Under the pieces are notes generated by a model. It saw only the letters and a program-made list of their open reading frames with translations. It had not been told where the DNA came from and ran no database searches. Positions 9,100 to 32,681 of a stretch of 64,000 nucleotides of DNA are shown here, one piece after another. Origin of the DNA: a virus. The first letter of the stretch is position 1. Each line of letters begins with the position of its first letter. The stretch spans positions 1-64,000 of IMG/VR virus record IMGVR_UViG_3300021197_000868, one strand, 5' to 3'. A program made the position numbers and the translations under genes.

Positions 9100-11452
9100 A
9101 TGTCGCCTTCCGATGCTGCTTGGCGACTTCTCAAGAATTATAAAAGTCAAGATTTCATTTTCAACCCTGATTACGGTGCTAGTGGTTATTATAAACCGGA
9201 CAGTAAAGAGCATTTTGTTAACTTAGCGCAATTGCGTGCGCTTGACGAACAAGGCGCTATAGAACGAATAACCAGTACTGGAACCCATGAAGCAATACAC
9301 GCTGCACAAGATAGTGAATTACAACATCTCAGGGGTGAAGATGGAAGAGGTCATTTTAGTGCTCATGAAGTAGGTGCTCATTCCGCTCAAAACCCTTATG
9401 AAATGCAAGATTGGAGAAATTGGCAGATGAGTGAGCACGGTGCTATGAATCCTGATAATTTTGAAACACTAGATAGTGGTGAAAAAAGAAGGAAGGTTAC
9501 TAATCCAAACACTATCAGTGATGTAACTCCAAGAGAAAAAATATATGGGACTTATGAAGATGATGATGAGTTTGAAGATTACGCTTTTGGTGACCATGAT
9601 TTTGCATTGATGTCTAACAAAGAACTTAACCAGTGGGCGAGTGCTTTACGAGCCGCTGAGTTAAAAGATGAGCCTGATTTTAAGACATCGGATGAAATGA
9701 AGAATGACCCTTATTACAGATTTTTACTCGGAAGCAGAGGAAGCAGCCCTTATATTCGGGGTAGCATTGAGGATGAGTTAGAAAGAAGAGTGAGACAGGT
9801 TGATGAAGACGGAGGTTACCATCAAAGAAAGTTCAAACCTGACTTTCAAGACAAACTAGCAAGCGAACCAATGGACATCGCTATGCAATTGTTGAAGGAA
9901 GTAGGTCGTGCTGAATCTTCTCCTACACTTATGGGAAATCCAAAAGCAACAGCATACATAAGCCAAAATAAAGACCCTGCTAACTTACCATGCTCAGTGT
10001 GTGACGGAAATACTACAACAACCATGCCGAAAATGTGGTCGCCCTGCGTCACTAGGTGCAGATGTATTAACAGGCGAACCAATGGACCTCGCCATGCGTT
10101 TGCTAAAATAAATGACCCCATGAAGATGATTACGTTATTGAAGAAGACCTTTATGGAGACTCTAATCAAGCATTAGATAACAGGCACATATACGAATTAA
10201 TGGGTCGAATAAGAGATGACGGGGAAACACATAACTATATTCGCAGTACAATGAATGGAGAAAAGGGTGCAGACACAAGAAAAGAAAAGAAATGTTAAAC
10301 CAAAATCGGTTGGCTGAATTAGAGCAAAAACCAAGAAAGATTTAGAAGAGGTGACACATACCTATTTATCGTAGCGAGCCTATGGACATCGCTATGCAGT
10401 TGTTGAAAGAGTCATATCAATCAAGGTTACCGGACCTCTCGCCCCTACATCCCCTAGCCACCGCCGCCGAACATTCCTGACACCAGATATACCGGGCTAT
10501 CATCGTCGGGGAGGACTACCTGCACGATTACATGTTGAAGGTGACCGTTTTCATTATTAGATTATGATGATAATGTATTAAGTCAACTTGAAGTGATGTG
10601 AACGATTTAGGCTCAAAAAGTATTGAAGACATTATGGTCATACCTGAATTAAATCGTAGAAGAGGACATTATCAAGATTTACTGGAAGCAGCGCTAAGAC
10701 ATGGTTACACAGTTATGAGTGACATGCGAAACGACTCATCAAATCCTTTTCATAAGAAGTTCTTGACTAACTTACCACCTGATATTGAAGCACAAGGGGA
10801 AATTGGAATTGAGACGGAACATGGATTTGATTATGGAATTGATAGAGACTCCGATTACATTTCTGATTTACATGGGGATGCAAGAATAGAATACTCAGGT
10901 AAATACAGCCCCGGAAATGCAATTGGGTGGGGTGACTTACAAACAGAATCTCGCTCTAAAGTACCGATGACTTACGAAACTGATTACCAGCGTTATCAAG
11001 ATAGACTTAATCGAGGAATAAACGCTAACACAGATATTCGGGCTAGGGGGCCTGATGGCGTAAAAAATTATGTACAGAGTCGACTTGATTTATCAATGGA
11101 AAAACCAGTGCCTAGGTGGGTAGGGATGACGGCGACGAACAGAAGCGGAGGAGAGGCTTGGCATGGTGATGGAAGAGTCCCTATGTTACCAACTAATCAA
11201 GGTATAGGGGTCCCTACAGGTATGTCTTACGACCCAGTATTTCATCAAAAAGATAGACCTTTCCACGATATTAACTTCGCTCCTAGTCTACAAGCAGGGG
11301 CAGTGGGTATAGACCCACGGCGATTAACAAGAAGAGAGCACATTGATTCACCAAACTCGTATACTAGTAGACGAGAATATCTTCACAATAAATTAATGAA
11401 CGGCGGTACATTAACGACCCAAGAAATTGAAGAGTATGCGGGGGAATCTTGA
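9100..11452 (+). CDS. Probable single modular polyprotein (HExxH metallopeptidase, Zn ribbon, unknown module, GNAT-like acetyltransferase), broken by several frameshifts at about 10010-10600
   Basis: THEAIH and HEVGAH motifs; CSVC...CRKC spans a frame change; three EPMD(I/L)AM(Q/R)LLK linkers at 9862, 10073 and 10373 not all in one frame; IMVIPELNRRRGHYQDLL resembles GNAT motif A. The track splits it into 9100..10176 and 10598..11452. Confidence 0.6.
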
Positions 11453-11468
11453 TATGAAGCAGCATCAT
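11453..11468 (+). promoter_or_regulatory. Promoter-like box TATGAAGCRRCATCAT, copy 1 of 3
   Basis: Also at 14435-14450 and 15674-15689; each starts 25-26 nt before an ATG. Confidence 0.75.
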
Positions 11469-11477
11469 AAGAGAGAC

Positions 11478-12107
11478 ATGGGCCGAGCCTTCAATATAGC
11501 ATGGGATTTATTGAAATACGAACCTACTAGGTCTATTGGTAGGGATGAAGCGGACCATATGACTGGGTCAGATTACGGTCAAGGTCGTAAAGCACTAAGC
11601 GATGAAGCACGTGAGAAGGCTGATGATTTCCATACCGCTCGCAGAGAGGCTATGCGCCCTAATCGGGGTATGGCGACTGTAGCAGACCCTTCTCAATACC
11701 TGTACTTAAATGACCGTAATCCTTACTTAGACCTGAATAGTCCTGAAACTAATCCATTCCCCGGTGGTATACCTACACTTCAAGAGAGGATGGCTGACAT
11801 AAAAGAGGAGGAAAGAATACAGGACTCAGTTCATGACCTAGTTTCTAACTTTGAGCCTGAACATATGTCCACTTCTGAAGCAAACCCACCTGTTGATATG
11901 GGTTCTACAGTAGAGCCTCCTAAGAGTGACATGAGTCCTCAAGGTAGTTTCCCTACTAGCATGGGACCAACACGTCAGCAAAAGCGTGGTCAGATGGGAA
12001 GAGGAGTAGCAGTAAAGCGCCCCGGATTCAGAAGCAGTGAAGCCATGCCTCTACCTGAATCTGCGAGAGATAGGGAGAGAGAATTAACTTTCAGTAGAAG
12101 GCTATAA
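11478..12107 (+). CDS. Tagged hypothetical protein (MGRAFNIAWDLLK...)
   Basis: Start re-assigned to 11478 from promoter spacing and the N-terminal tag. Confidence 0.75.
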   Translation: MGRAFNIAWDLLKYEPTRSIGRDEADHMTGSDYGQGRKALSDEAREKADDFHTARREAMRPNRGMATVADPSQYLYLNDRNPYLDLNSPETNPFPGGIPTLQERMADIKEEERIQDSVHDLVSNFEPEHMSTSEANPPVDMGSTVEPPKSDMSPQGSFPTSMGPTRQQKRGQMGRGVAVKRPGFRSSEAMPLPESARDRERELTFSRRL

Positions 12108-12119
12108 TGAGGAATAATC

Positions 12120-12986
12120 ATGTCAGCGTTCAGTCATGCTTGGGATTTGCTGAAAGCCCTCAGTCCCGAGGACCTTCAACAAGCGGCTCGTACTGGCGGT
12201 ATAGGTATGACTCCTGAGAGGGGTCAAGCCTACGCTGACGCTGGTCTTCCTTTGAACACAGGTGGTGGTTTTAGAACCATGCCCGATACAGAAGCGCAAC
12301 GATTAATGCGCTACCAAAAAACAGGAAGTCCTGAAGGTATAAATCAGCAAATGGGAAGTGGTGCTACGTTTGACCCTAAAGCCAAAGACCTTGCTGAGTT
12401 TTTACATCAAGATTCAGACACTGGTGGTAATCTTGACATGGATGACCGACTTGAAGACATACATTACATGTTAACACAAGGTCAGTCTATAGAGCCTCAC
12501 TCTGAACCTGATGCACCTCCTGAACATCCGATGAAAGAATACTTGGCCCCTATGCCAAAAGGTAGAGGGGTTTCAGAAGAGTATCAAAAAAGAACAGCCG
12601 CTAGTAATAGGGGTGCGATTGATTCTTACCGTAATAATCAAAAAGAGGGAAATGAGAGAGACTTGAGAGAGTATCTAAATCAACTTCCTGAAAATGAGCG
12701 ATTCCCACCAAGTGAGTTCGCAAGAAGAGGTGACGCTGGTGCATCTGCAAGTGACAAAGCATTTTCAGAAATGAAGAACCGTCAGCAAAGGGCTGAAGCA
12801 GAAAAGCAAAGGGCTGAAGCAGAAAAGCAAATGCTGGCTGAAAGACAAAAAGAAATGATGATGCGTCAGCAAAAAGCAAGGATGAAATCAAAACAGCCAC
12901 CTAAAGGAAGAGCAGGTGGAAGAAGACCGGGTGAAGGTAAGAATGCTTACAAGAATCGAATGCGAAGACAAGGTGGTAGAAGATGA
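12120..12986 (+). CDS. Tagged hypothetical protein (MSAFSHAWDLLK...) with a basic C-terminus
   Basis: GAGG RBS; 21-bp tandem duplication at 12784-12831. Confidence 0.8.
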   Translation: MSAFSHAWDLLKALSPEDLQQAARTGGIGMTPERGQAYADAGLPLNTGGGFRTMPDTEAQRLMRYQKTGSPEGINQQMGSGATFDPKAKDLAEFLHQDSDTGGNLDMDDRLEDIHYMLTQGQSIEPHSEPDAPPEHPMKEYLAPMPKGRGVSEEYQKRTAASNRGAIDSYRNNQKEGNERDLREYLNQLPENERFPPSEFARRGDAGASASDKAFSEMKNRQQRAEAEKQRAEAEKQMLAERQKEMMMRQQKARMKSKQPPKGRAGGRRPGEGKNAYKNRMRRQGGRR

Positions 12987-13258
12987 GAGCATTTGATAAA
13001 GCGTGGCAGATTCTGAAAGAAGAAAGTGTAGGGAAGAAATATGGTTTACCTCCCGGCTTTTCAGGTGACCCCGAGATGTATAATCGTGCAAGAGAAGAGG
13101 ATAATTACAATAGAATAATGGATGAAGAAAGCATGCGTGGTGAAAATCAGGCTCTTGAAAATGTAGGTGAAGCGCCATCAGTAAAAGAATTAATGGATAA
13201 ATTAATGCGTGGCGAGCAATTAACTCGTCACGAGCAAATGATGCTTCAAAGATTCTAA
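12983..13258 (+). CDS. Tagged hypothetical protein (MRAFDKAWQILK...)
   Basis: ATGA overlap; GGTGG RBS. Confidence 0.8.
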   Translation: MRAFDKAWQILKEESVGKKYGLPPGFSGDPEMYNRAREEDNYNRIMDEESMRGENQALENVGEAPSVKELMDKLMRGEQLTRHEQMMLQRF

Positions 13259-13311
13259 GTTTACTTAGCCACACCTACTACTTTATTTTCTACACCACTC
13301 TCGTAACGTAC

Positions 13312-13482
13312 ATGATTGCTACAATTGTCATGTCATCCGTTTTTGGACTGGTTGTAATTTGGGTCACTTGCTTCTATGTAGTTGCTGATTTTTTATCAGA
13401 CCTCGGTGATTTTGACTTGTCAACTGAGGATTTAGAAGATGATTGTTTCAAAGGACTACGTTTACTACGGTGGGAAAAGTGA
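13312..13482 (+). CDS. 56-aa single-TM protein, below the track cutoff
   Basis: MIATIVMSSVFGLVVIWVTCFYVV hydrophobic N-terminus; TTTATT about 30 nt upstream. Confidence 0.6.
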   Translation: MIATIVMSSVFGLVVIWVTCFYVVADFLSDLGDFDLSTEDLEDDCFKGLRLLRWEK

Positions 13483-13631
13483 ACCTACCTGACCCAAGTG
13501 AAATTACCGGCCTTCCCTTATGGGTGCTGTGTGTTATACTAGGGTTAGTAAGTTTCATAGTTACATTCTTTTGGCCCCGCTCTAAAAATGAAATTAGATT
13601 CGTAGACTTAGGTGGAGACTTATGGAAATAA
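13479..13631 (+). CDS. Small single-TM protein
   Basis: GTG start overlapping the upstream stop (GTGA); LWVLCVILGLVSFIVTFFW helix. Confidence 0.6.
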   Translation: MNLPDPSEITGLPLWVLCVILGLVSFIVTFFWPRSKNEIRFVDLGGDLWK

Positions 13632-14497
13632 CTGTGTATGAAGTAGGACCTCGTGATGGTTTACAAGCACTACCTCATGTAGTTTCTATAGAACACCGTA
13701 CTGAGTTAATAAAATTACTTTACGATGCTGGTTTGAAAGAAGTTGAAGAAGTGTCATTTGTACATCCAAAGGTATTACCTCAAATGGCAAATGCAGAAGA
13801 GGTGTTTACTGGTCGTGGCTCTTCTCTTGTTTTGAATAAACGTGGTTTTGACAGGGCGATTGCTGCTGGCGCTGAGAAGATAAACATCGTGCTAAGTCCA
13901 TGTGAATCATTCTGTATGAAGAATATGGGTAAGCGGTATCAAGAATTATTACTTACTTATCGTACATTTCTAAACAGTTATCCTAAAGATAAGGTCAGGG
14001 TCTACATATCAATGGCTTTTGGTAGTCCGGTTAGTGGTGAGTTTAGTAGAAATCATTTAGACATGGTAGTACGTGATGCTAAAATGTTTGGAGATACAGT
14101 CGTCTTTGCAGATACTGTGGGGGTAGCCACTAATGACGACATTGAGTTTGTCGCTGATTTGGCTTTCAAACATAACATGATTCCTGCTCTACACTTACAT
14201 CATAAAGGGAAAGAGGAAAGAGCGCTTTCACTGATAAGAAGTGGACTCTTTGCGGGTATAAAGGAGTTTGATACTAGTATCGGGGGATTAGGCGGGTGTC
14301 CTTTTGCTAAAGGAAGTGGCTCAAACTTAGCAACTGAAACTTTACTTAGATACCTCGAAGTTTGGGGCTTTGAACATAACGTGGATATGGAATTACTAAC
14401 AAAGGCTAGTAGGCTTGCTTTAGAGTTAAAGTCTTATGAAGCAACATCATCGCCTATACTATGGGCGAAGCCTTTGAAATCTGCTGGCAGGTTTTGA
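13622..14497 (+). CDS. hmgL: Hydroxymethylglutaryl-CoA lyase (DRE-TIM metallolyase), auxiliary metabolic gene
   Basis: EVGPRDGLQ, SFVHPK, ADTVG, HLHH, GLGGCPFAKG...NLATE with the catalytic Cys retained. Confidence 0.92.
   Translation: MEITVYEVGPRDGLQALPHVVSIEHRTELIKLLYDAGLKEVEEVSFVHPKVLPQMANAEEVFTGRGSSLVLNKRGFDRAIAAGAEKINIVLSPCESFCMKNMGKRYQELLLTYRTFLNSYPKDKVRVYISMAFGSPVSGEFSRNHLDMVVRDAKMFGDTVVFADTVGVATNDDIEFVADLAFKHNMIPALHLHHKGKEERALSLIRSGLFAGIKEFDTSIGGLGGCPFAKGSGSNLATETLLRYLEVWGFEHNVDMELLTKASRLALELKSYEATSSPILWAKPLKSAGRF
14435..14450 (+). promoter_or_regulatory. Promoter-like box TATGAAGCRRCATCAT, copy 2
   Basis: Starts 26 nt before ATG 14461. Confidence 0.75.
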
Positions 14498-15678
14498 AGT
14501 CGCCTACTAGATTTCAAGATATACAAACCACCCTTCCTGAAATGGATGAACTAGGTTACGGTGCTACAAGAACTGTACACACTCATCCTTCATTACCGGG
14601 TAAAGTCATTAAATTACCTAAACACTCAGCATTTTTTAATAGACAAGCCCACGATTTAGAAACAAATGCAGCGATGAACGCTTTAGCGCAAATGGGTCAC
14701 CCTGTAATTCCCGAAAAACCAGTAATAGTACCAGCACGTATGGAATCAGGAAATGATTACCCTAACCAAGTTATTAGAAAATTACCTGAGTTAGGAATGA
14801 TACAAGATTTCGCCGGGGAGACTGTAAAAGATAGAACAGAAGATAAGCATATTCCGAGAGTGCAAGTCAGACCATCATTATTAAACACCGCTGGGCGTGA
14901 ACTTATGAATAATGATTCACCCTCAGAAATGTCACTAGATGAAGTGAGAGCATTACGAAATAGGAAAAGAACATTTAACAACTCAACGGGGAAAAGGGAC
15001 TTACCTAATTTCTTAGAGTTAGGTGACCTACACAGTGGGAATGTAGTTGGTAGTGGTACTGATGAAGACCCCTTCCAAATCATTGACGGTTATGCCGCTA
15101 TACCTAAAATCAATATGGGGCTTCAAAATTATGCTAGACAATGGAGGAGAATGGACCCAGTGGCAAGAGCCACCTTTAAGAATCTCTTTAGTGATAAATC
15201 ACAATTCGCTGATATAGCGAATTATCACAATAATCCTCATCCAACTGAACCTGAACGTATGCCTAATTTAACTGCGGATGAGTTTGGTACTGATAAGATG
15301 TATGAGGCTGAGCATGAAGGTCGCTCGTTCATGGACGGTGGAGAAGGAAGGCATAAAACACCTATGGATAGAGCCCATGATGAGTATTCTAAGTATCTAG
15401 CAGCAAGAAAGCGTTTAGAATTAATTGATAGTCTTGTAGCAGACCCTCATCAAACAAGAGTAGAAGAATGGCATAACCCATATAATGACATGTCTATTTC
15501 TGATTTAGAGCGTGAGGGCTTTTATGGACCTGATGCAGGTTCTTTATCGAATACAGAAATGGGCTATGGAAGCAGTATGAGTATGGCTCGTGATAGTTTA
15601 CTCCCACCTGATACTTTCACAGGTACTAATCTACGTTTTAAAGACCCTGATTATTGGAAAACCGATGATTCTATATGA
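14461..15678 (+). CDS. Tagged protein-kinase-like protein (atypical Ser/Thr or APH-like fold)
   Basis: LGYGATRTV Gly-loop, KVIK, GDLHSGNV catalytic loop, IIDG; N-terminal MGEAFEICWQVLK tag. Confidence 0.75.
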   Translation: MGEAFEICWQVLKSPTRFQDIQTTLPEMDELGYGATRTVHTHPSLPGKVIKLPKHSAFFNRQAHDLETNAAMNALAQMGHPVIPEKPVIVPARMESGNDYPNQVIRKLPELGMIQDFAGETVKDRTEDKHIPRVQVRPSLLNTAGRELMNNDSPSEMSLDEVRALRNRKRTFNNSTGKRDLPNFLELGDLHSGNVVGSGTDEDPFQIIDGYAAIPKINMGLQNYARQWRRMDPVARATFKNLFSDKSQFADIANYHNNPHPTEPERMPNLTADEFGTDKMYEAEHEGRSFMDGGEGRHKTPMDRAHDEYSKYLAARKRLELIDSLVADPHQTRVEEWHNPYNDMSISDLEREGFYGPDAGSLSNTEMGYGSSMSMARDSLLPPDTFTGTNLRFKDPDYWKTDDSI

Positions 15679-15689
15679 AGCGGCATCAT
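15674..15689 (+). promoter_or_regulatory. Promoter-like box TATGAAGCRRCATCAT, copy 3
   Basis: Starts 25 nt before ATG 15699. Confidence 0.75.
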
Positions 15690-15698
15690 CCGACATCT

Positions 15699-16682
15699 AT
15701 GAGCCGTGCTATTAACGCAGCATTTGACCTTCTTAAAATGCAACATTTTGAACAACAGTACGGATATGAGTTCGTACTAGATGTTATTTCAAAAGCAGTA
15801 CAGGACCCACGTGTAGAGAAAATGCGTATGTTCGTTTTGCAGAATATGGATAGCCCTGACCCTCAAATGAGGAGACAGGCTGAAGAAATGTATCAGCAAT
15901 TAACTGAAGTCATGAGTGGTGCTGGTGGTAAAATATCAGCGGCTACTCCATTAGGTGTTGACCCTTCAGCGCCTCCAGCACCTGAAGGTTTAATGAGTAC
16001 AGGTAATCCTAAAGGTGAAGCCCGACCTATTATGGCTAAAGCATTCAGTGCTTTTCTTGATGCTGAGTTCATCAGGAAGAATGTAGTTGGAACACAGGCA
16101 ACAGGTCGAGGAGGTACACCTGTTCAATACAATATGCCTCCATCAGTAGCATCAATGGCTCAACGCCCTCAAATTGCTGAAATGCAACCTCAGACCACAC
16201 AAGTTCCTCAGCAAGCACCGGGTATGTTTGGTAGATTTAAGCAACCAGTAATGACTGACCAAACTAATTTAGCACCTACTGGTGATAATGTAACAGGTGG
16301 CCCAGCAACAATGAATGTTCAACAAAACGCTGAAAATCCTATGGAGGGATTAGGGGGTATGGGTCAAATGATGGCGGCTCCGGGTGCTCAAGTAACTCGT
16401 ATGCCTCGTCCACAACCATTTGGTTCAGGCATGGGTACGGACGTATATTTTAATGGCGGTAAAGTCCCAGCACCTACACAAAGTTTGGCTGGAGAAGGTT
16501 ACACTGTAGATGACGCTGGGGATTGGGTAAAACCTCCAAATCCTTACGAGAGCAGTGCTAATCGTCAGCGATGGGCAAGAGACTCCAAGTTACCTGTAGG
16601 TAACTACAATTCAGAAGGCGACTATAGGATTAACACAAGAACTGCACAAATGGGTGCGGCTGACCAATTTACTGGCGTTTGA
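15699..16682 (+). CDS. Tagged low-complexity (Q/P/G/M) protein (MSRAINAAFDLLK...)
   Basis: Start re-assigned to 15699; second internal tag-like segment AKAFSAFLDAEFIRK. Confidence 0.75.
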   Translation: MSRAINAAFDLLKMQHFEQQYGYEFVLDVISKAVQDPRVEKMRMFVLQNMDSPDPQMRRQAEEMYQQLTEVMSGAGGKISAATPLGVDPSAPPAPEGLMSTGNPKGEARPIMAKAFSAFLDAEFIRKNVVGTQATGRGGTPVQYNMPPSVASMAQRPQIAEMQPQTTQVPQQAPGMFGRFKQPVMTDQTNLAPTGDNVTGGPATMNVQQNAENPMEGLGGMGQMMAAPGAQVTRMPRPQPFGSGMGTDVYFNGGKVPAPTQSLAGEGYTVDDAGDWVKPPNPYESSANRQRWARDSKLPVGNYNSEGDYRINTRTAQMGAADQFTGV

Positions 16683-16694
16683 TAGGTGATGTAA

Positions 16695-18179
16695 TTGCCT
16701 AAAGACCCTGAGACGGTTGAGAAGTTTTGGAACGTCCTTGCTGGCGCTGGATTAAGAGCACTCGCTGGTAAGAAAGCAACACAAGTTGCTGGGGGAGCGG
16801 CTCTTGGTGGTTTAGCATCTACTGCTGGAAGCGCCGCTACTTCCGCTGGGGCCGCTGCTGGTAAAAAGGGACTGAAGGCTAAGATTGCTGATAAGGTAGA
16901 AGAAGTTAAAGAAAATCCTAAGATGCAAATGCTAGGCGCTGCTCAACAAAGTCTTGACCAAAATCGCATGGCTGCTGAGCAGCAGAAAAGGGACCAACAG
17001 CAACGTGCATCTGAAATGGCACGTTCTAAAGCAGACACGAGTACAGGCGGTGCATTCTCTAAGGCTTGGATGACAATGAAAGGGCAGACGTTTCATCCTA
17101 GTATTGTAGAACATCTCAAAGAGAGAACACCTAGGAGAGGTGAAGTTGAAGTTGCCCCAAGACCTTCTCCTTTTCCAAATCAACCTGATGAGCCTGTAGA
17201 TGTAGAGACTCAACGTGGTACACCCGCTGTAGACGAGCAGGGATTTACAACTCTACCTCAGCAACAAAGTGATGCTATTCAACCCGGTGATATGCCAAGA
17301 GGTAGTGCTAAAAAGATAGCAGTGGGTGGTACACAACCCATAGGTAATTTAAACCATACAATGTTTTTCAATAGAGGTCATCTCCGAGAGCGTGAAAATA
17401 GATTAGAAGGTGAAGGAGACGAAGTAAAAGAAATTATGTCACATTACGCTTCTAAACTAATAGGACCTGATGGTAGATATTTACCAAATGCTAATAAAAC
17501 GGTATCTGTTAAAACTCATCATTTAGATAAACCTAGAACAGCAGCGGATGGGAGTAGAGGTGATACGATAGTTGCTACTATAAGACCACATGATAATCAC
17601 CCTGATTATCCTCAATTACATACTGTGATGTATAGAGGTTCTAATCAACCATTTGACCTTGAATGGGCTAAGCGTTTCAATGTTGGAAAAATAATCAACC
17701 ATGTTAGGAAAGTTAGGCTTAAAAATAGGCTTAAAAAGTCTGAAAACTTGAATAGTATACTGGTTAAAGAAAGAAAAACCCCTGAAGCGATGAGACATAA
17801 GCGTGAATATGATGCTCAGTATAACAAACGCCCTACTCAAGTTAAGTATCGTGAGGACTTAAATCGTGAGCGCCGCCGCCGTGGAATCATGGGAAGTCAT
17901 GACCATATGGATGTTAGTCATACTCAAGGTGGAAAACTCACATTAGAGCCTGAACACTCCAATAGGGCTAGACATTGGAAGGATAAAGGTACACTGAGAG
18001 TAGTGAAGTCAATGAAAGATGATTTAGAATTACTTCGTAATCTACTTCAGGGACCAATGGATGAGCAAGACAAAAAAATCGCTGACGCTACTTTGACAAT
18101 GCTTGAAGAGCAAGACAATGACGAGGAAGAGGAAGAATTATCTCGACCACTTCACGGTGGCGGTCATCTATTTGTATAA
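16695..18179 (+). CDS. Modular protein with an internal tag (GAFSKAWMTMK) and a degenerate HNH-like module
   Basis: GGTGA RBS with TTG start; EYDAQY...R..LNRERR...MDVSH...SNRAR resembles small phage HNH-like domains. Confidence 0.7.
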   Translation: MPKDPETVEKFWNVLAGAGLRALAGKKATQVAGGAALGGLASTAGSAATSAGAAAGKKGLKAKIADKVEEVKENPKMQMLGAAQQSLDQNRMAAEQQKRDQQQRASEMARSKADTSTGGAFSKAWMTMKGQTFHPSIVEHLKERTPRRGEVEVAPRPSPFPNQPDEPVDVETQRGTPAVDEQGFTTLPQQQSDAIQPGDMPRGSAKKIAVGGTQPIGNLNHTMFFNRGHLRERENRLEGEGDEVKEIMSHYASKLIGPDGRYLPNANKTVSVKTHHLDKPRTAADGSRGDTIVATIRPHDNHPDYPQLHTVMYRGSNQPFDLEWAKRFNVGKIINHVRKVRLKNRLKKSENLNSILVKERKTPEAMRHKREYDAQYNKRPTQVKYREDLNRERRRRGIMGSHDHMDVSHTQGGKLTLEPEHSNRARHWKDKGTLRVVKSMKDDLELLRNLLQGPMDEQDKKIADATLTMLEEQDNDEEEEELSRPLHGGGHLFV

Positions 18180-18910: not shown

Positions 18911-18923
18911 GTGGGGAATATGA

Positions 18924-19178: not shown

Positions 19179-19179
19179 T

Positions 19180-19905: not shown

Positions 19906-19952
19906 TAGACCTTTCAGGAAGCCTTTTAATTGAATTACTTATGGTGAATGTT

Positions 19953-22983: not shown

Positions 22984-23378
22984 TGGAAGTACCAGTTCCT
23001 GACCTTTTACAGGTTACTCATCCGGGTTACAGTATAGTGATGGGTCGCCCTAATTTAAGTGATAGTAACATTCTAATTCTTGTTGACTTCGCTAAATGCC
23101 TAACTGAAAGGTTTGAACATTATGGTAAGGTCGATGTATCTTCACCTGACATATTTGAACTACTTCAACAATCATTTAACCTGTTATTGAATAATGATGA
23201 CCCTCAGCAAGTTATACCTGTTAGATTTTTCACTGCTCGTCTTCTTGAAGAGTTTGAGAGTATGGTATCTAATATGTGTCAAGCGTTCCCTATCAATCCC
23301 ATAATAAAAACTGTCTACAATGACCTTAGTGAATTACTCTTTGAATCTCTTACTGAATTATCAGGAGGTGAACTTTGA
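22980..23378 (+). CDS. Hypothetical protein
   Basis: ORF track; coupled. Confidence 0.7.
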   Translation: MMEVPVPDLLQVTHPGYSIVMGRPNLSDSNILILVDFAKCLTERFEHYGKVDVSSPDIFELLQQSFNLLLNNDDPQQVIPVRFFTARLLEEFESMVSNMCQAFPINPIIKTVYNDLSELLFESLTELSGGEL

Positions 23379-26868: not shown

Positions 26869-28167
26869 ATGGGTGGAGTCCTTGTAAGAAAAAACATTCA
26901 ACCTCAATATAACTTTGGTACTGGTGAAATATCAAATGTAGTAAATGTAGGAGGGCGTAGGTCTAAAGGCCCTGTTTTACCTAACATGAGTGGTACAGAT
27001 AGAAGTCCTGCTCAAATGGCGAGCATTCAAGCCTTTGGTGCTCAGGCTGGACAAGAGTTAGCAAACTTACCTTCACCCGGCTCTATTGCAGATTATACTA
27101 AACGTCAAGAAGTTGGTGTTCAAAGAGCATCGGCTAAGGATGCGATGTCAAGAGGAGCGCCTACAAGTCATTATGAAAGATACGGGGCTGATAGATTTCA
27201 AAGAGAGATGGATAAAGGTGCAGATATTGATACTGCTAATAGAGCAGGTATAGCAGCCGCTAAAGTTGGAGTAAAAGGGAGAAGATTTGGTGGTAAATTA
27301 GGAGGTGCTCTTGCTGGCGGTTTGGGTATCTTATCAGCGGCTACTGCTTTAGATGAAGCGGGTGCTTCCGGTCAAGGTTTTGACCGTGCTATCACTAATG
27401 CTGGATTAACAGGAGTTACTACTTATGGACAAATAGATAATTCGGTAACACCTTTCTTACAAGATAAAGGTGGTGCTATAGGCTCTAAGTTTGCTAGTCC
27501 TAAATACGTAAGACCACCAGTGGCTGTCAATCCTCCGACTACCACTCCTCCAGTAGCGGTTACTCCGTCTGTTATTCCGGGTACGGGTACAGATTCTCAA
27601 GGTAGGTCTTTTAGCCCACTCCGCTCTACTGTGCGTGGTGAAGGTGAAACCTTTAGTCAGGCATACGATGCTCCGTTAACAAGCGCTCAAAACAAAGAAA
27701 GATTGACTGCTATTAATGCTCAAGCACAAAATAGCAACATGGGTATGACCCCTCAAATGACTGCTGAAAAAGTTGGTATTCAAAGGCGTGAGAATCCAAC
27801 TAATGTTGCTCAACCATTCAATCCTCAAGTGCAAGAGGGTGCTATGGATATGTTCAACGCTCCTCAACAGGTAGGTGTTGTACCCGGTAGTAGTCGTGTA
27901 GAACCATCAGGGAGTACAACTGTTCAACAAGGGTTACCCGGTATGGCGACTCCAAAAGCAGAACCTACCAATCCAGTAAAGGTTCAACAACAACTACCAT
28001 TGGGTCCGGATGAGGCTTCTGCTGCGTTTGCACCCCCTAAAGGTGGAGTAACGGGGATGCCGGATGCTAATGCTGCTGCTGCTCAATTCACTGGACAACA
28101 AAAAATGACTCAGGAAGAGATACCAGTGGTTGACCCCAATAAGAATCAGGAGGTGCAGGGAGCATGA
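26869..28167 (+). CDS. Gly/Ala/Pro-rich probable virion (ejection/pilot-like) protein
   Basis: GGKLGGALAGGLGILSAA hydrophobic Gly-zipper; N-terminal VLVRK-N. Confidence 0.7.
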   Translation: MGGVLVRKNIQPQYNFGTGEISNVVNVGGRRSKGPVLPNMSGTDRSPAQMASIQAFGAQAGQELANLPSPGSIADYTKRQEVGVQRASAKDAMSRGAPTSHYERYGADRFQREMDKGADIDTANRAGIAAAKVGVKGRRFGGKLGGALAGGLGILSAATALDEAGASGQGFDRAITNAGLTGVTTYGQIDNSVTPFLQDKGGAIGSKFASPKYVRPPVAVNPPTTTPPVAVTPSVIPGTGTDSQGRSFSPLRSTVRGEGETFSQAYDAPLTSAQNKERLTAINAQAQNSNMGMTPQMTAEKVGIQRRENPTNVAQPFNPQVQEGAMDMFNAPQQVGVVPGSSRVEPSGSTTVQQGLPGMATPKAEPTNPVKVQQQLPLGPDEASAAFAPPKGGVTGMPDANAAAAQFTGQQKMTQEEIPVVDPNKNQEVQGA

Positions 28168-29645
28168 AGAAATCTCAGCAGATGGAGGACCTCGTAAAAG
28201 AGATGGACAATAAAATGTCCGAGCGTTCATTCCAGTATTTCTTTGAGACAGTGCTTGGGTTTGATTATGCTGACCATCACAAAAGGTGGAGTCATGGGTT
28301 AAACGAAAGTCGTTATTACTGCGTAAAAGCGAGTCGTGACCACGGTAAATCTGTATTCTTTATGTCCTACGCTCTTTGGTTAGCAGCCTATAATCCGGGC
28401 ACACACATCATGATTTTCTCACATTCCCTAGAACAGACACTTGAGCACATGCGTTTCATTCGTAACAATATAGAGTCGTCTGTTTGTTTAAGAGAATTGA
28501 AACCATCAGGTATTCCTTGGAGGAAGACCTACTTTGAGTTTACAAACGGTAGTCGTATTATGGCTAAGTCCGTTGGTGGAGGAACTCGTGGATTCCACCC
28601 TGACGTGGTATTGTGTGACGATATTCTATGGGGTACAACTGGTAGTGAATTACAGCGTGCTGCTGACTGGTTCTATGGAGTTCTACTTCCTGTTCTGCAC
28701 CACACAGGTCGTTTGATGATGGTAGGTACTCCGTTCAGTTACAATGACTTATACGCTCAGTTAGAAAAGACTGAGACATTCACGGTAGAGACATATCCTG
28801 CTATCAATAGAGAAGGTGAACCACTTTGGCCCGCTCGATGGAGTTTAGAGGCTCTTGACCAAAGACGTATGTCAATGCCCGCTATTCAGTTTACACGTGA
28901 GTATCTGTGTGAACCTATACACGATGTTGCTAGTATGTTCCCAATGGCTCTTCTTGAAAAAGCACGTGACCATAAACTGAAGATACTGGATGTAGCAGAT
29001 TCTGAGTACGATGAAAACGGAGATAGAGTAGGTGTACTCGGTCATCATTTCATCGGGTGGGACACTGCTATCGCATCTGACAAGAACGCCGACTATACCG
29101 CTATGACTGTCTTACGAACATTACCTGATGAAGATGTAAAGCAAATTGTAGGTATAGTGCATGAACAGGGTATGGGTTCAGCGGCACAGAAGCGTCAGAT
29201 AATCCTCCTCAACAACAAGTTCCAACCTGACCTCATAGAATTAGAAGGTAACAATTTCCAGCGTATGTTCGCTATGGAGTTACAAGACATTCGTCAGGAC
29301 ATTCCTATTCGTACATTCATGACAACACGTACACGTAAAGAGAGTTTATTCATGTCTTTGTTGTTAGCATTTGAGCAAGGTCAAATTAAAACCCCCTACG
29401 GGGATGACCGCTCTAGGAGATTCACACATAAATTAGAAGAGGAATTGACTCGTTTTGGTATGCAGAAAAATGGGCGCTTAGAAAGCGTAGGCGTACATGA
29501 TGACTTGGCTATGTCTCTAGCCCTTGCCAATTGGGGTACTAAAGAGTTCAGAGGTAGCGTAGTAATGCTGGATGACTATATGCCCGGATTCGATGAGTGG
29601 ATAACTGGTAAACCTAGAAAGAAAGACGGATGGATGATACCATGA
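28164..29645 (+). CDS. terL: Terminase large subunit
   Basis: Walker A ASRDHGKS, RGFHPD..LCDD Walker B, VGTP coupling motif, RNase H-like IGWD...HDDLAMSLALA. Confidence 0.95.
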   Translation: MKKSQQMEDLVKEMDNKMSERSFQYFFETVLGFDYADHHKRWSHGLNESRYYCVKASRDHGKSVFFMSYALWLAAYNPGTHIMIFSHSLEQTLEHMRFIRNNIESSVCLRELKPSGIPWRKTYFEFTNGSRIMAKSVGGGTRGFHPDVVLCDDILWGTTGSELQRAADWFYGVLLPVLHHTGRLMMVGTPFSYNDLYAQLEKTETFTVETYPAINREGEPLWPARWSLEALDQRRMSMPAIQFTREYLCEPIHDVASMFPMALLEKARDHKLKILDVADSEYDENGDRVGVLGHHFIGWDTAIASDKNADYTAMTVLRTLPDEDVKQIVGIVHEQGMGSAAQKRQIILLNNKFQPDLIELEGNNFQRMFAMELQDIRQDIPIRTFMTTRTRKESLFMSLLLAFEQGQIKTPYGDDRSRRFTHKLEEELTRFGMQKNGRLESVGVHDDLAMSLALANWGTKEFRGSVVMLDDYMPGFDEWITGKPRKKDGWMIP

Positions 29646-30505
29646 AGCAAGAAAAAGTTGGAAAGAAGCCTAAAGGTATGGTACTAGTTATCTCAGTTGG
29701 TAAGCCTACTGGAAAAAAACCTGAACGTGAAGCAGACCCTGATTCTAAAAAGAAGATGGATAGACTGAGTAGCGAAATGGTGAGAGGTACTGGGAAACCC
29801 CTACCGGGTAAAATTGCTGCTAAACTAGCAGGAAATCAGGCTAGAAATCAAGTTCGTTATCAACAGGGACCTACACAAGACTCTAATCTTGAGTTCGATG
29901 AAGACCTTGACAATTACGATTTTCATCCTTCTGAGGATGCTCCTGATTTAAGTCTATCAGATGATGTTGATACTAATGTAAGACCGAGACATATCAGAGA
30001 TATTCCGGGTGCTATGAATAATATGTCAGTAGAGGATGCAAATGCCTTCAACGCTAGAATGGCTAATAGAAGTCAAGCCAAACTACAAAATAATGTACAC
30101 ATGCTTGATTTACAGAATATGAGGCGACAAAATGAGCGAGATGAAGCATTAAAGGCTATCATGAAAGGTGAACATGTAAACTTCTGTGACTGTTGCTCAC
30201 CTGCTGAAATCGCTTGGGCTGTCACTAAAGCAAAAAAGAAATCTAAACCATTCCACGGTTACAATCCTAACAAGCATCACCGTAAAGGTGGTTTAAATGC
30301 TAAAGGTAGAGCCAAAGCGAAACGTGAGACAGGTGCAAACCTCAAAGCCCCAGTTACTAAGAAACCAAGTTCACTCAAACCCGGTAGTAAGTCAGCAAAG
30401 CGTCGCAAATCATTCTGCGCTCGTATGGGTGGAATGAAGGGCCCAACTAGTAAGAAAGGTAAACTTACTCCTAAAGGGGCATCGCTCAAGAGGTGGAACT
30501 GTTGA
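29642..30505 (+). CDS. Modular basic protein with an internal tag (SPAEIAWAVTK) and a C-terminal DUF6321-like domain
   Basis: GGLNAKGR...LKAPV...RRKSFCARM...KRWNC pattern recalled from marine phages; family name not verified. Confidence 0.7.
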   Translation: MKQEKVGKKPKGMVLVISVGKPTGKKPEREADPDSKKKMDRLSSEMVRGTGKPLPGKIAAKLAGNQARNQVRYQQGPTQDSNLEFDEDLDNYDFHPSEDAPDLSLSDDVDTNVRPRHIRDIPGAMNNMSVEDANAFNARMANRSQAKLQNNVHMLDLQNMRRQNERDEALKAIMKGEHVNFCDCCSPAEIAWAVTKAKKKSKPFHGYNPNKHHRKGGLNAKGRAKAKRETGANLKAPVTKKPSSLKPGSKSAKRRKSFCARMGGMKGPTSKKGKLTPKGASLKRWNC

Positions 30506-30657
30506 AAGATAAGTGCTGCTGTGGGGCTACGAAAAGCACTCCTTGTGAGTGTATGAAGAAGGACATCCAATGTTCTGCTAAAGCACCTAAGTGTCCTTGC
30601 TATAAGTTGTTAGATTTACAAACCAAAGATGTCAAGAAAATGGTGGCGGTATTCTGA
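30502..30657 (+). CDS. 51-aa metallothionein-like Cys-rich protein, below the track cutoff
   Basis: TTG start overlapping the upstream stop, GAGGTGG RBS; MKDKCCCGATKSTPCECMKKDIQCSAKAPKCPCYK (8 Cys). Confidence 0.6.
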   Translation: MKDKCCCGATKSTPCECMKKDIQCSAKAPKCPCYKLLDLQTKDVKKMVAVF

Positions 30658-31127
30658 ATCCATTCGATATTTGTTTTGATGACCTTCGTAAGAAGTTATG
30701 TCCGGCTGGTAAAGCAGCGGCTAAGAAAAAGTTCGATGTTTATCCGTCAGCGTATGCTAATGGTTGGGCTGTTCAATACTGCAAGGGTAAGTTCAAAGGT
30801 AAAAAGAAAGGAAAAAGCGTTAAAAAAGCAAATCCATTTATGATGATGGGTGGTAAGACAATCCATCCATCTGTAGCGATGTATAGATTGATGGGTCAAC
30901 AAAAGATAAACGAGCGAAATAACCCACCTGAAGATAATTACTCCTCAGATGAAAGGATGAGGGAAGTAGCGAGGAGGCAGGTATCTGACCGTATGAAGGC
31001 AACATCGCTAAATGCTTCTACTCCTTTTGGCCCTGTTGAAGGAGAGTTTAATACAAGGCCCGATGGTAGTCCAAGATTTTTGTTTGAAGGTCAGGAAAAA
31101 AGCGCTGGGTTAAACAATGTTAGATAG
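30654..31127 (+). CDS. Tagged basic protein, probably CTG-initiated (MNPFDICFDDLRK-KLCPAGKAAAKKKFDVYPSAYANGW...)
   Basis: Frame of track ORF 30840..31127 is open 62 codons further upstream; CTGA overlap, GGTGG RBS; KKFxVYPSAYAN motif recurrent in marine phages. Confidence 0.65.
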   Translation: MNPFDICFDDLRKKLCPAGKAAAKKKFDVYPSAYANGWAVQYCKGKFKGKKKGKSVKKANPFMMMGGKTIHPSVAMYRLMGQQKINERNNPPEDNYSSDERMREVARRQVSDRMKATSLNASTPFGPVEGEFNTRPDGSPRFLFEGQEKSAGLNNVR

Positions 31128-31138
31128 GTGAAAGTACA

Positions 31139-31432
31139 GTGAAGCCAGTTTTAATTCGTAAGAATCTGAACCGATGGTTCAAAGAAAAATGGGTTGACGT
31201 TAGTCGTAAAGACAAAGATGGCAAGCACCCACCTTGTGGTAGGTCAAAGGCTAAGAAAGATAGTAAGGGCTATCCGAAGTGTAGACCAAGCGTGAAAGTA
31301 TCAGGTAAAACTCCAAAGACTTCAGGTTCTATGAGTGAAGGACAAAAGGCTGCTGCTACAAAACGTAAGCGCTCTAAGAAGCAAGGAGTAGGTGGTAAAC
31401 CTACTATTGTGAAAATGGTGTTGGTTAAATAG
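31139..31432 (+). CDS. Basic DUF5872-like protein
   Basis: LNRWFKEKWVDV...CGR......YPKCRP motif; GGTGA RBS; family name from recall. Confidence 0.7.
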   Translation: MKPVLIRKNLNRWFKEKWVDVSRKDKDGKHPPCGRSKAKKDSKGYPKCRPSVKVSGKTPKTSGSMSEGQKAAATKRKRSKKQGVGGKPTIVKMVLVK

Positions 31433-31454
31433 AGGTAACTTGTGAGGTAGAATT

Positions 31455-32681
31455 ATGTGGGGTTCAGCGTTGATAGAAGACGACTTCGTATCGAAGGCTG
31501 TTCCTAAAACTCAAGAGGCAGTTGAGGCTATCCGTAAGACTTACCGTTTTGCTCCTAATGGTGATGGTTGGTTTAAGTCTAAAATGAACTGTACTGCTGA
31601 TGATTTAGTTAAAAGACTACGTAAGGCACGTAGACATAACAAAGAAAGTAGCACTGAAATTGATGACATGATTAGTGACATTCGTACTATTAAGGCAATT
31701 GAAACTGAAATGACAATTAAAAATCTTTCATGGTCTAGTGATTTAGAGCACTGTGTTAAGGGGCTTGGTTTATCAGATAGAGGTCTGAAACACCTTCGTC
31801 AATTTGGTGAGGCCCGCTCAGTGTCTCTACAGAAGGCTTGTATGTTATGGGATAAGGCTGAAGTGACTTTAAAAATGCTAGATGAGCATGAAGACGTTTG
31901 GGGTAAAGAAGAGCAAGAAGCGTGGGCTAATGCCATGCGAGATAGAAGCAGCGCACGTAAAATGTGGCGCACTGCTTTATTTCAATCTGATAAGTTATCA
32001 AAAGCAGAGCAGAAACGTCTTGAATACGTAAGTGAGCAACTCCTGATTAAAGGTCCTATGTCAGTAAAAATCCTTCAAAGTAATTTGAGTGAAGAAGGAA
32101 TGATAAGTAAGTCATTTACATCTCGTAAGTTTACTACACTGCTTAACATGTTTGGTGAGGAATATGACATCATGAAGGGTAGTAAAAAAGGAACATATGT
32201 TCGCCTTTCAAATGTAGGATTAGTCTTGAAGGATGTATGGTCATACGGCGCAGGTTTCCTCGATGCTGATGGTTACATAACTATCACTGAAAGAGGAGAG
32301 CCTCGTGCTGGTATGATTGCTACTGGTGAGAGAGGGCGTGTACACTGTGAAGACCTCTACAAGACTATGGATTGCGGGATTTTACAACTAGATAATAAAG
32401 TACATAAAAACTCCAAGCGTAGTCAGCATAGACTACAATTTTATTCTAAAGCAGACCTTCGTAAGTTCCTAAACGGAGTTTTACCACATCTGAAAATGAA
32501 AGATACACAAGCAAAAGCGGTGTTAGCATTCATTGAAGAAAAGGACCCTGTACGAAAGGAAGAGTTAAAGCGTTTAGTACGCTACAAGAATTGGGAGGAC
32601 GATTCTCGTAAATCGTCCGAACTCCTTAATTCATGGGGCTTAGACGCAGACACAATAGGTAAGTATGCGGAGGGTCTATGA
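31455..32681 (+). CDS. Free-standing LAGLIDADG-domain protein with a long helical N-terminal region
   Basis: YGAGFLDADGYITI motif; G.........HRLQF....LRKFL..VLPHLKMK..QA pattern. Confidence 0.85.
   Translation: MWGSALIEDDFVSKAVPKTQEAVEAIRKTYRFAPNGDGWFKSKMNCTADDLVKRLRKARRHNKESSTEIDDMISDIRTIKAIETEMTIKNLSWSSDLEHCVKGLGLSDRGLKHLRQFGEARSVSLQKACMLWDKAEVTLKMLDEHEDVWGKEEQEAWANAMRDRSSARKMWRTALFQSDKLSKAEQKRLEYVSEQLLIKGPMSVKILQSNLSEEGMISKSFTSRKFTTLLNMFGEEYDIMKGSKKGTYVRLSNVGLVLKDVWSYGAGFLDADGYITITERGEPRAGMIATGERGRVHCEDLYKTMDCGILQLDNKVHKNSKRSQHRLQFYSKADLRKFLNGVLPHLKMKDTQAKAVLAFIEEKDPVRKEELKRLVRYKNWEDDSRKSSELLNSWGLDADTIGKYAEGL

Follow-up and report, generated by a model that had tools for sequence, protein, structure and literature searches.

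Why should proteins that appear to have nothing else in common carry the same short peptide? The question is raised by the window, the whole 64,000-nucleotide stretch analysed here (positions 1 to 64,000 of record IMGVR_UViG_3300021197_000868), which derives from a magrovirus-like archaeal tailed virus of about 105 kb (104,930 bp). The first-pass annotation had quoted 13 such peptides and read them as Lys-specific signals for capsid loading and cleavage. All 13 were found where it had placed them, on the + strand:

9100..9135, + strand: N-terminal tag MSPSDAAWRLLK of ORF 9100-10176 (28.9 bits)
9862..9897, + strand: internal tag SEPMDIAMQLLK within ORF 9100-10176 (31.8 bits; 38-nt direct repeat family D1)
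10073..10108, + strand: tag GEPMDLAMRLLK, with a stop codon directly after it, in a frame different from that of the 9862 copy (28.5 bits)
10373..10408, + strand: orphan tag SEPMDIAMQLLK in a short open stretch, the frame breaking on the surrounding sequence (31.8 bits)
11478..11516, + strand: N-terminal tag MGRAFNIAWDLLK of a 209-aa protein, 11478-12107 (34.6 bits)
12120..12155, + strand: N-terminal tag MSAFSHAWDLLK of a 288-aa protein, 12120-12986 (32.1 bits; fits the strict DNA search pattern)
12983..13018, + strand: N-terminal tag MRAFDKAWQILK of a 91-aa protein, 12983-13258 (33.8 bits)
14461..14499, + strand: N-terminal tag MGEAFEICWQVLK of a 405-aa protein, 14461-15678 (32.2 bits)
15699..15737, + strand: N-terminal tag MSRAINAAFDLLK of a 327-aa protein, 15699-16682 (26.6 bits)
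17046..17081, + strand: internal tag GGAFSKAWMTMK at about residue 118 of ORF 16695-18179 (27.3 bits)
23774..23812, + strand: internal tag variant SEPMEHAWSEILK, one residue longer, in ORF 23375-24574 (9.4 bits)
30197..30229, + strand: tag-like SPAEIAWAVTK ahead of the DUF6321 domain of ORF 29630-30505 (13.5 bits)
30657..30692, + strand: degenerate tag NPFDICFDDLRK (13.8 bits)

The ten strong copies, at 9100, 9862, 10073, 10373, 11478, 12120, 12983, 14461, 15699 and about 17049, scored 26.6-34.6 bits with a position matrix; the next best site in the whole 104,930-bp genome scored 15.9 bits. A loose regular expression matched 10 times across the window's six frames and not once when the frames were reversed; 300 shuffles gave 0.007 matches on average. 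Since this expression was fitted to the data, the weight rests on independent support from a matrix scan of other contigs. A matrix built from the window's nine copies alone picked out 489 sites scoring 14 bits or more in 990 kb of other viral contigs, compared with 3 in the reversed control. The three weak copies (23774, 30197 and 30657) are genuine as well, because homologous proteins in relatives have clearer tags at the same position. At the place equivalent to 23774, the homologue in relative G001 has the canonical EPMDIAWQLLK (34.0 bits). Relatives read CDCC-SPxELxxAxLK/AKKKSKPFHGYN at the 30197 site (a slash marks the border here and below), DUF6321 occupying residues 217-289 of the window ORF, and the G001 counterpart of the 30657 site reads TPFDIAWDSLEK/KLCPEGK. 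A further match at 51318, within a protein of the tail module, is probably due to chance, because relatives have none at that place.

The tag is 12 residues long, ends in Leu-Leu-Lys and is placed before, between or after modules. It exists in two forms, an N-terminal form with the consensus M-[TS]-A-F-[DE]-x-A-W-x-L-L-K and an internal or C-terminal form with the consensus [GS]-E-P-M-D-[IL]-A-[WFMY]-[RQ]-L-L-K. The Lys is invariant and the border after it is sharp. The earlier statement that similarity stops after the Lys is correct in general, with the refinement that Ala or Met comes next in half of the N-terminal tags and that Pro follows in 28%. N-terminal copies are true translation starts, as 200 of the 244 genes that have them show a G-rich ribosome-binding signal at -12 to -8. 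Among copies, the conserved Ala, Phe, Leu and Lys are encoded by varying synonymous codons, indicating that selection acts on the peptide and that conservation is at the protein level. The exception is the EPMD copies at 9862, 10073 and 10373, which are also 76-89% alike in their DNA. The helix has a conserved face on which two small and nearly invariant residues, both Ala, lie next to Phe and Trp, an arrangement that suits packing in a protein groove. In an AlphaFold model of one cargo family, the tag forms its own helix (residues 3-11) ahead of the domain, with moderate confidence in that part. The best explanation of these features is that the tag is a portable amphipathic helix. No published description of it was found in the literature searched.

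A DNA pattern for the tag matched 117 IMG/VR stretches, 104 of which have further genes in common with this virus. The same search of 596 Gb of prokaryote genomes yielded 33 hits. The peptide was read for 12 of these and was a real tag in one, which lies on a contig of a related virus within a Poseidoniales single-cell assembly. The tag is thus a hallmark of this virus lineage, and its predicted absence from host proteins is borne out. Haloviruses with a related head module had no such tag within the 41 kb examined, which counts against the loading reading.

In four complete genomes the tags are confined to the strand that carries the structural genes; they lie upstream of the terminase and run in the same direction as the packaging and head genes:

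28164..29645, + strand: large terminase subunit, a landmark on the downstream side of the island (Pfam Terminase_6N/6C; phrog_38, E 4.6e-62)

No tags were found in these genomes in the replication module, in the minus-strand early-looking block, or in capsid, portal and tail proteins, and an HMG-CoA-lyase-like gene within the island has none. This agrees with the expected placement among late and head genes. The island is the first block of a long plus-strand unit; its timing of expression is read from gene order alone, and it could have its own promoters.

The tagged modules (363 unique) fall into 152 unrelated clusters, and an all-against-all BLASTP comparison of the tagged proteins of the window detected no significant similarity outside the tag. 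The proteins are therefore unrelated apart from the tag, as first proposed. When representatives of 58 clusters were searched against Pfam, only 3 matched any family. The cargo is soluble: a membrane-like segment was present in 0 of 363 tagged modules, compared with 34 among the 401 genes of the four genomes. Most tagged genes consist of a single module (median 169 aa). Some relatives have three or four modules with tags between them (L107 is an example), and in the window ORFs 9100-10176 and 16695-18179 have internal tags. The GQTFHPS... module behind the 17046 tag carries N-terminal tags in relatives (cluster 1). Twelve of the 34 multi-member cargo clusters contain both stand-alone, N-terminally tagged genes and modules that follow an internal tag in fusions; thus modules are shuffled, with the tag as border.

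One cargo family, found in relatives and not a window gene, has an ADP-ribosyltransferase (ART) fold and matches DarT and Tpt1 both by profile and by fold. Among 1.84 billion representative proteins, 60 of its 79 members are small tagged proteins; otherwise the module lies untagged within giant proteins. Nine such giants were scanned and Pfam families were detected in six, including one MuF (Phage_Mu_F), one ART-PolyVal and one Acb1. Polyvalent proteins of this kind have been proposed to be injected with phage DNA (PMC5512222). A high-scoring language-model lead connects the 14461-15678 protein, whose tag is retained in close homologues, to viral kinases, and further cargo leads point to Kinase-PolyVal, metallopeptidase or LPD domains.

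The end of the tag recurs in proteins of the head module, where the gene order is portal, giant protein, protease, capsid protein:

32678..34405, + strand: portal protein (phrog_18178, E 3.9e-62)
34807..35130, + strand: 107-aa protein, proposed scaffold, with candidate site SIIK/G
35848..41367, + strand: 1839-aa giant head-module protein with an N-terminal DLVK/S site (ELLK/S in G001)
41403..42794, + strand: prohead serine protease (S78) with a long C-terminal extension (Pfam Peptidase_S78 PF04586, E 1.4e-9)
42836..44011, + strand: major capsid protein (phrog_24667, E 5e-58)

At domain borders of head proteins, two hydrophobic residues and Lys are followed by Ala, Ser or Gly, and this pattern is conserved though the flanks vary. 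Such sites are present in the capsid protein, in the leader and C-terminus of the protease, in the scaffold-like protein and in the giant protein, which matches no Pfam family; a hydrophobic-hydrophobic-Lys border is also found in the DUF6321 and o24571 families. The candidate maturation site of the capsid protein is SELLK/ADSP (42923-42937). Its L33 and K34 are invariant in 12 orthologues with identity down to 63%, and LLK/ADSP aligns with MSK/ADN of halovirus HVTV-1; the structure model used to map K34 was of very low confidence (pLDDT 33). The protease, whose Pfam matches are limited to Peptidase_S78 and S78_2, has candidate cut sites at LSLLK/G (41439-41453) and at STIAK/S near the C-terminus, both conserved in orthologues despite variable flanks. 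The short Lys sites that the first-pass annotation had noted in the capsid protein, the protease and ORF 24571 are thus conserved across orthologues, and the TIAK-S that it assigned to the scaffold belongs to the C-terminal part of the protease. The SIIK/G site of the 107-aa protein and the C-terminal site of the protease each lie about 22 residues ahead of a C-terminal tail, MTWDEIHNMA, which is common to the two proteins. These tails have no resemblance to the tag, so cargo and scaffold do not obviously use one site.

Capsid loading with cleavage is the best-supported reading of these data, though the support is indirect. On balance we favour a scheme in which the tag would load soluble accessory proteins into the virus head and the S78 prohead protease would cut after the Lys; docking and its partner, encapsidation, cleavage and injection are what we infer from comparison of sequences. 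The helix would dock its protein on a component of the assembling prohead, so that the protein becomes enclosed in the capsid. The last three residues would be the recognition site of the HK97-type protease, which would trim the capsid protein, itself, the scaffold-like protein and the giant head protein at sites of the same type, and cutting at the tag would free each cargo module within the head. The cargo would then be a fast-changing set of effectors, ADP-ribosyltransferase-fold enzymes and possibly kinase-like and metallopeptidase-like proteins, entering the next Poseidoniales host cell along with the DNA. The comparative predictions of the loading and cleavage reading agree with the data throughout. 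Release by cleavage does not extend to about one fifth of the internal tags (11 of 59), which lie within 10 residues of a stop codon. A cut there frees nothing, and docking therefore looks like the primary role of the tag, with cleavage secondary.

The tag could instead be a docking helix for a hub outside the capsid (the viral group II chaperonin, the small-GTPase block or a host protein) at which accessory proteins would be brought together during infection to be folded, localised or regulated. We regard this as unlikely. The helix does resemble a peptide-in-groove motif and is found at either end of proteins as well as internally, a chaperonin is among the viral genes (PMC5434244), and the stretch from the island to the terminase holds a conserved small-GTPase block in 4/4 genomes. 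However, the tag ends in the same hydrophobic-hydrophobic-Lys as the domain borders of head proteins, and large, hard-to-fold proteins such as the capsid protein have no tags. G005 has the most tags, yet no chaperonin gene was found in its record, which is 88% complete. The tag is absent from cellular genomes and is thus not a copy of a host motif, and an ART module homologous to tagged cargo travels in MuF-linked virion proteins elsewhere.

More doubtful still is a removable pro-peptide without any targeting role, cut after the Lys by a viral protease in the cytoplasm; until that cut it would keep toxic effectors from acting or label them as substrates of the protease. The invariant Lys and sharp border would be expected of it, ART-fold enzymes could damage the producing cell, and internal tags part modules in the manner of a polyprotein. 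Head-protein sites, however, have only three residues in common, whereas the tag conserves 12, and the additional nine need another explanation, such as binding. The modelled tag is a separate helix with no obvious block of the active site, at moderate model confidence, and C-terminal tags would be without effect on activity. Furthermore, S78 prohead proteases act within the assembled prohead, as is known from HK97. A border at the DNA level is very improbable: a 36-base patch (ribosome-binding site, start codon and homology) that favours recombinational exchange of accessory genes and encodes a functionless peptide would suit the hypervariable island, in which several cargo genes of the window have no homologue in the 117 related loci, the shuffling of modules at the tag, the frequent Met after the Lys, as though the tag were placed ahead of an older start codon, and a 14-nt upstream element common to three tagged genes, but the copies vary mainly at synonymous sites, in strong excess, while Ala, Phe, Trp, Leu and Lys are retained, the internal form follows a separate consensus, in which Glu-Pro-Met replaces the start region, and positions that are free to vary favour certain amino acids (position 5 is Asp or Glu in 57 of 72 unique tags).

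For the favoured loading reading, the comparison with T4 capsid targeting made in the first-pass annotation is apt, with an HK97-type S78 enzyme as the protease. Diverse internal proteins of phage T4 have only the capsid-targeting sequence in common, and are loaded into the prohead and injected (PMC3012670); Alt, one of the loaded cargo proteins, is an ADP-ribosyltransferase (PMC5512222). In both viruses a short peptide, N-terminal in T4 (IPI-III and Alt), is the sole shared feature of diverse proteins, and ADP-ribosyltransferases are among the cargo. The T4 peptide ends at the prohead-protease site; the magrovirus tag ends in the Lys pattern that recurs at candidate cut sites of its head proteins. 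The two peptides have no sequence likeness, ending in Glu in T4 and Lys here, and the proteases are gp21 and an S78 enzyme, respectively. The magrovirus tag also occurs internally and C-terminally, and on more than 150 families (8-14 genes per genome) against a handful of proteins in T4. Its host is an archaeon, and its function is inferred whereas that in T4 is demonstrated. The cargo, with a median pI of 5.2, lacks the basic character of T4's DNA-associated internal proteins, and this counts against the loading reading. Owing to the Lys ending and the S78 protease, the system was rejected as a member of the T4 type; it is an analogue.

In HK97, whose capsid protein has a 102-residue scaffolding domain, the S78 protease cuts that protein after Lys103 and is itself brought in by its C-terminal tail. 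The magrovirus likewise encodes an S78 protease between portal and capsid protein, has a conserved Lys ahead of a conserved capsid-protein body, and has a conserved protease tail shared with the scaffold-like protein. Its capsid leader is 34 residues long, and its Lys is a candidate site where that of HK97 is established. HK97 loads only the protease; we know of no set of cargo with a common tag there. Encapsulin cargo-loading peptides are terminal, transferable, carried by unrelated cargo and bound to the inner face of an HK97-fold shell. A short peptide on unrelated cargo and an HK97-fold shell are common to both systems, binding in the magrovirus being presumed. Encapsulin peptides sit mostly at the C-terminus, adopt an extended shape and no helix, and stay uncleaved; encapsulins lack portal, tail and genome. 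The magrovirus is a complete tailed virus with terminase, portal, protease and tail genes, and was therefore not classed as an encapsulin.

In giant phages (SPN3US and other phiKZ-like phages), the prohead protease trims many of the proteins inside the head, and these enter the host, as the magrovirus cargo would in the proposed scheme; all that they share is a short cleavage motif, with no 12-residue docking helix (PMC7411985, PMC10052503). Their protease is T4-like and their hosts are bacteria. Polyvalent and MuF-fused effectors (Iyer et al. 2017, PMC5512222) overlap with the cargo in class, in the ART fold and in the leads to Kinase-PolyVal and metallopeptidase or LPD domains; the homology, from profile searches, concerns the ART cargo family of relatives. 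Both sets evolve fast, are mosaic, and have been proposed to be delivered with the DNA. Polyvalent proteins chain many domains in one giant polypeptide, often anchored by MuF, whereas magrovirus modules are mostly separate small tagged genes, and fusions retain the tag between modules. What unrelated, soluble proteins of this ocean archaeal virus have in common is most likely an address tag, one that would load them into the head and be cut by the head protease.

Ten copies of the tag, a shared 12-residue helix ending Leu-Leu-Lys, lie at 9100–17081 in front of, between or behind proteins that are unrelated outside it. The first-pass annotation had noted the shared motif on unrelated ORFs, and all the peptides that it listed are present as given. 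Scored with a simple position matrix, the ten copies reached 26.6–34.6 bits, and the next best site genome-wide reached 15.9. A loose pattern recovered 10 copies, compared with 0.007 expected from shuffles. The same tag residues are encoded by differing codons among the copies, so it is the peptide that is conserved; the EPMD copies at 9862, 10073 and 10373 resemble one another at the DNA level too. Searches of the tagged window proteins found no Pfam, PHROG or NCBIfam family, except for phrog_6437 (function unknown) in the C-terminal part of the protein encoded by ORF 16695–18179. Weak copies at 23774, 30197 and 30657, also listed in the earlier annotation, are supported by clearer tags at homologous positions in relatives. 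A tag at 51318 was rejected as part of the system, as relatives have none there.

The stretch 9862–10600 has an unusual structure. It contains three tag copies within 550 bases, and the reading frame shifts between them. A CxxC...CxxC stretch resembling a zinc ribbon is divided over two frames (PCSVCDG, then QQPCRKCG), a stop directly follows one tag, and another tag sits in a 41-codon open stretch. The stretch could be a decayed polyprotein gene, or it could reflect programmed frameshifts or errors in assembly. In relatives, the locus L107 for example, proteins with three internal tags are intact.

Two forms of the tag were distinguished. The N-terminal form, M-[TS]-A-F-[DE]-x-A-W-x-L-L-K, was found in 291 unique contexts, and a G-rich ribosome-binding signal is present at −12 to −8 ahead of such tags in 200 of 244 genes. 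The internal form, [GS]-E-P-M-D-[IL]-A-[WFMY]-[RQ]-L-L-K, was found in 59 contexts. Met1, Ala3, Phe4, Ala7, Trp8, Leu10 and Leu11 make up the conserved face of the helix. Directly after the Lys, half of the N-terminal tags have Ala or Met, and Pro comes next in 28%. From the frequency of Met-Pro, the tag seems to have been placed ahead of an older start codon, and an untagged relative of one cargo family begins exactly at the post-tag Met-Pro. A 14-nt element, TGAAGCRRCATCAT, occurs three times in the window (11455–11468, 14437–14450 and 15676–15689; 0.08 expected), each copy beginning 23–24 nt upstream of a tagged gene's ATG. None of the three genes has the G-rich ribosome-binding signal that precedes most tagged genes in relatives. 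Because the copy ahead of 14461 is not in the reading frame of that gene, the element acts on the level of DNA or RNA; it may be a promoter for leaderless transcripts.

To search for the tag elsewhere, we used a degenerate DNA pattern encoding M-x-A-F-x-x-A-W-x-L-L-K. Among IMG/VR viral contigs, 117 stretches matched, several with 3–4 copies each, and nearly all matches were ORF starts. Positions left unconstrained by the pattern were biased as well: position 5, for example, was Asp or Glu in 57 of the 72 unique tags. Other genes were shared with the window virus or three close relatives in 104 of the 117 stretches. Bacterial and archaeal genomes totalling 596 Gb gave only 33 matches to the pattern; the peptide was read for 12 of these, and the sole real tag lay on a Poseidoniales-associated virus contig, in keeping with the earlier expectation that cellular proteins do not share the motif. 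A matrix built only from nine window copies gave 489 matches in 990 kb of fetched loci, versus 3 in reversed translations. The tag is a hallmark of this virus lineage. Full-text searches of 8.4 million papers with the tag motif strings gave no relevant match, and three magrovirus papers name no N-terminal motif.

The 64-kb window opens a single virus record of 104,930 bp, in which a minus-strand block (1–8.5 kb) gives way to a long plus-strand block with these genes:

28164–29645, plus strand: large terminase subunit
32678–34405, plus strand: portal
35848–41367, plus strand: 1839-aa protein (the giant head protein)
41403–42794, plus strand: S78 prohead serine protease
42836–44011, plus strand: major capsid protein, with tail genes downstream

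The capsid protein shares 32–34% identity with its counterparts in the haloarchaeal siphoviruses HVTV-1, HCTV-1 and HCTV-5, with nothing closer in the phage collection; this likeness is the pattern reported for magroviruses, whose hosts are Poseidoniales (Marine Group II archaea), described as among the most abundant surface-ocean microbes (PMC5434244). A Poseidoniales single-cell assembly, AG-422-I20, includes a 106-kb contig (NODE_2; loci L137 and L168) on which nine tags lie within 8 kb and whose capsid protein shares 63% identity with the one in the window. This contig probably comes from a virus within or attached to a host cell, and its presence in the assembly supports the assignment of Poseidoniales as hosts.

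The position of the tags was compared in the window genome and three complete or near-complete relatives, fetched whole. In all four, tags are confined to the structural-gene strand, upstream of the terminase, and most lie in an island, with a conserved small-GTPase block between it and the terminase. No tag was found in the replication module or in the capsid, portal and tail proteins of these genomes. From gene order alone, we infer late expression of the tagged genes. Several other features of the layout were observed. An untagged HMG-CoA-lyase-like gene (13622–14497; Pfam HMGL-like, E 6e-18) lies mid-island; homologues occur in 32 of 117 related loci, and their location differs in each of the three complete relatives. 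At 18320–22983, five to six genes, including one for a 241-aa protein, keep their order from island to terminase in four complete genomes at 37–81% identity, and no Pfam family was found for members of this block. The tail module contains an ORF of 5687 codons (53585–64000, running on to genome position 70648), with homologues in relatives 41–59% identical over parts. Past the window, on the minus strand at genome position 76613–78088, a 491-aa protein has a TCP-1/thermosome-like signature (RTTLGPMG) at its start; magroviruses are reported to encode a group II chaperonin, and this protein is probably that one.

Behind the tags we found 363 unique modules in 152 clusters, and only 3 of 58 cluster representatives had a Pfam match. 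The modules are small, with a median of 169 residues. A membrane-like segment was present in none of the 363, versus 34 of 401 genes of the four genomes; this, together with the conserved acidic residue of the tag, led us to reject a membrane or secretion signal. Basic cargo as in the T4 internal proteins was likewise rejected, the median pI being 5.2. Members of 12 of the 34 multi-member clusters occur both as stand-alone tagged proteins and fused behind internal tags.

One large cargo family (MPYHGT...) gave profile matches to DarT and Tpt1/KptA. Its AlphaFold model (pLDDT 74) matched the folds of Tpt1/KptA and other ADP-ribosyltransferases, and the tag formed a separate helix at residues 3–11. 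When the family was searched against 1.84 billion representative proteins, 60 of 79 small proteins had the tag at residue 1–6. A further 71 matching proteins, of more than 400 residues, are tagless and aligned only from just past the tag. Pfam families were present in six of nine of these giants that were scanned, including Phage_Mu_F, ART-PolyVal and Acb1 in one each, and PARP or Tpt1 matches recur among the nine. The scanned giants are 'polyvalent proteins', which, according to one proposal, are packaged with phage DNA and injected along with it (PMC5512222). For the window's own proteins there were two leads only. The 405-aa protein at 14461–15678 resembles viral kinases, including Kinase-PolyVal (language-model score 0.94); the related-loci search found no relatives in IMG/VR, and only four close homologues were found among 5.8 billion proteins. 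The protein of ORF 9100–10176 has an HExxH motif and weak likeness to LPD23 and M78 metallopeptidase clusters. Neither this protein nor the profiles of two further cargo families gave a credible match to PDB sequences.

At domain borders, head proteins repeat the last three residues of the tag. These sites are conserved in orthologues despite variable flanks, among them the hydrophobic-x-K sites that the first-pass annotation had noticed in the capsid protein and protease. Writing the candidate cut after Lys as a slash, the capsid protein has ...[ED]-L-L-K/A-D-S-P in all orthologues down to 60% identity, aligned with M-S-K/A-D-N of HVTV-1. The protease begins with a variable leader of 16–28 residues that always ends [LIV]-[LV]-K, the catalytic domain coming next. 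At its C-terminus (42650–42794) a hydrophobic-x-K/S site lies about 22 residues upstream of a C-terminal tail, and the 107-aa scaffold-like protein (34807–35130) has such a site at the same distance from its tail (K/G in the window copy). The tail, M-[ST]-W-[DE]-E-[VI]-H-x-[LM]-A, is common to both proteins; its sequence differs in the more distant relatives G004 and G005. It looks like a capsid-binding tail that would be removed in maturation. The idea that the tag is a copy of this tail was rejected, as the tag matrix gives the tails scores at the median of the null. The giant head protein contains DLVK/S (ELLK/S in a relative), and DUF6321 proteins and the family of ORF 24571 have short variable leaders with the same kind of ending. 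These head-protein sites would fit a Lys-specific maturation protease, such as is known in HK97. The AlphaFold model of the capsid protein (pLDDT 33) gave no mapping of K34/A35 onto the HK97 N-arm, its profile gave only a marginal central match in the PDB, and the mature-end peptide strings returned nothing relevant in a literature search. As a separate observation, 29630–31432 encodes small Lys-rich proteins with DUF6321-type domains, in which a Cys motif (CDCC or CTCH) stands directly ahead of the tag-like or hydrophobic-Lys leader; in PHROGs the DUF6321-type domain forms the end of proteins of up to 928 residues, function unknown.

On balance we lean, if narrowly, towards the tag being a docking helix that would load soluble effectors into the prohead and would end in a site for the prohead protease. 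It would then be an archaeal-virus counterpart, in logic, of the T4 capsid-targeting sequence (PMC3012670), working with an HK97-type protease. A point against release is that 11 of the 59 internal copies lie within 10 residues of the stop codon, and tags at a C-terminus cannot serve release. The wider proposal, that this one helix is a universal address label with which the lineage loads more than 150 unrelated, rapidly evolving effector families into its HK97-fold capsid for release by Lys-specific cleavage, falls somewhat short of probable. A rival explanation is that the tag docks to another hub, for example the viral chaperonin; the chaperonin gene is present in genomes G000, G001 and G004; in G005 (88% complete) it was not found. 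Alternatively, the tag might be a pure pro-peptide. A DNA-level recombination cassette is disfavoured by the synonymous variation between copies.

To our knowledge, the Poseidoniales hosts and the magroviruses are uncultured, and the function of most of their genes is unknown. If loading by a docking helix is correct, a sixth or so of the genes in such a genome would belong to one class, virion-delivered effectors. The cleavage rule of an archaeal prohead protease would be defined, and a short peptide would be available with the potential to carry foreign proteins into HK97-fold shells. Archaeal viruses would have evolved a portable capsid address of the T4 kind independently, with an HK97-type protease. 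On the wider proposal, the lineage would have the largest known repertoire of virion-delivered proteins, and the tag would serve as a sequence rule for predicting, with metagenomes as the only input, those 'dark' viral genes that act at the onset of infection in uncultured Poseidoniales.
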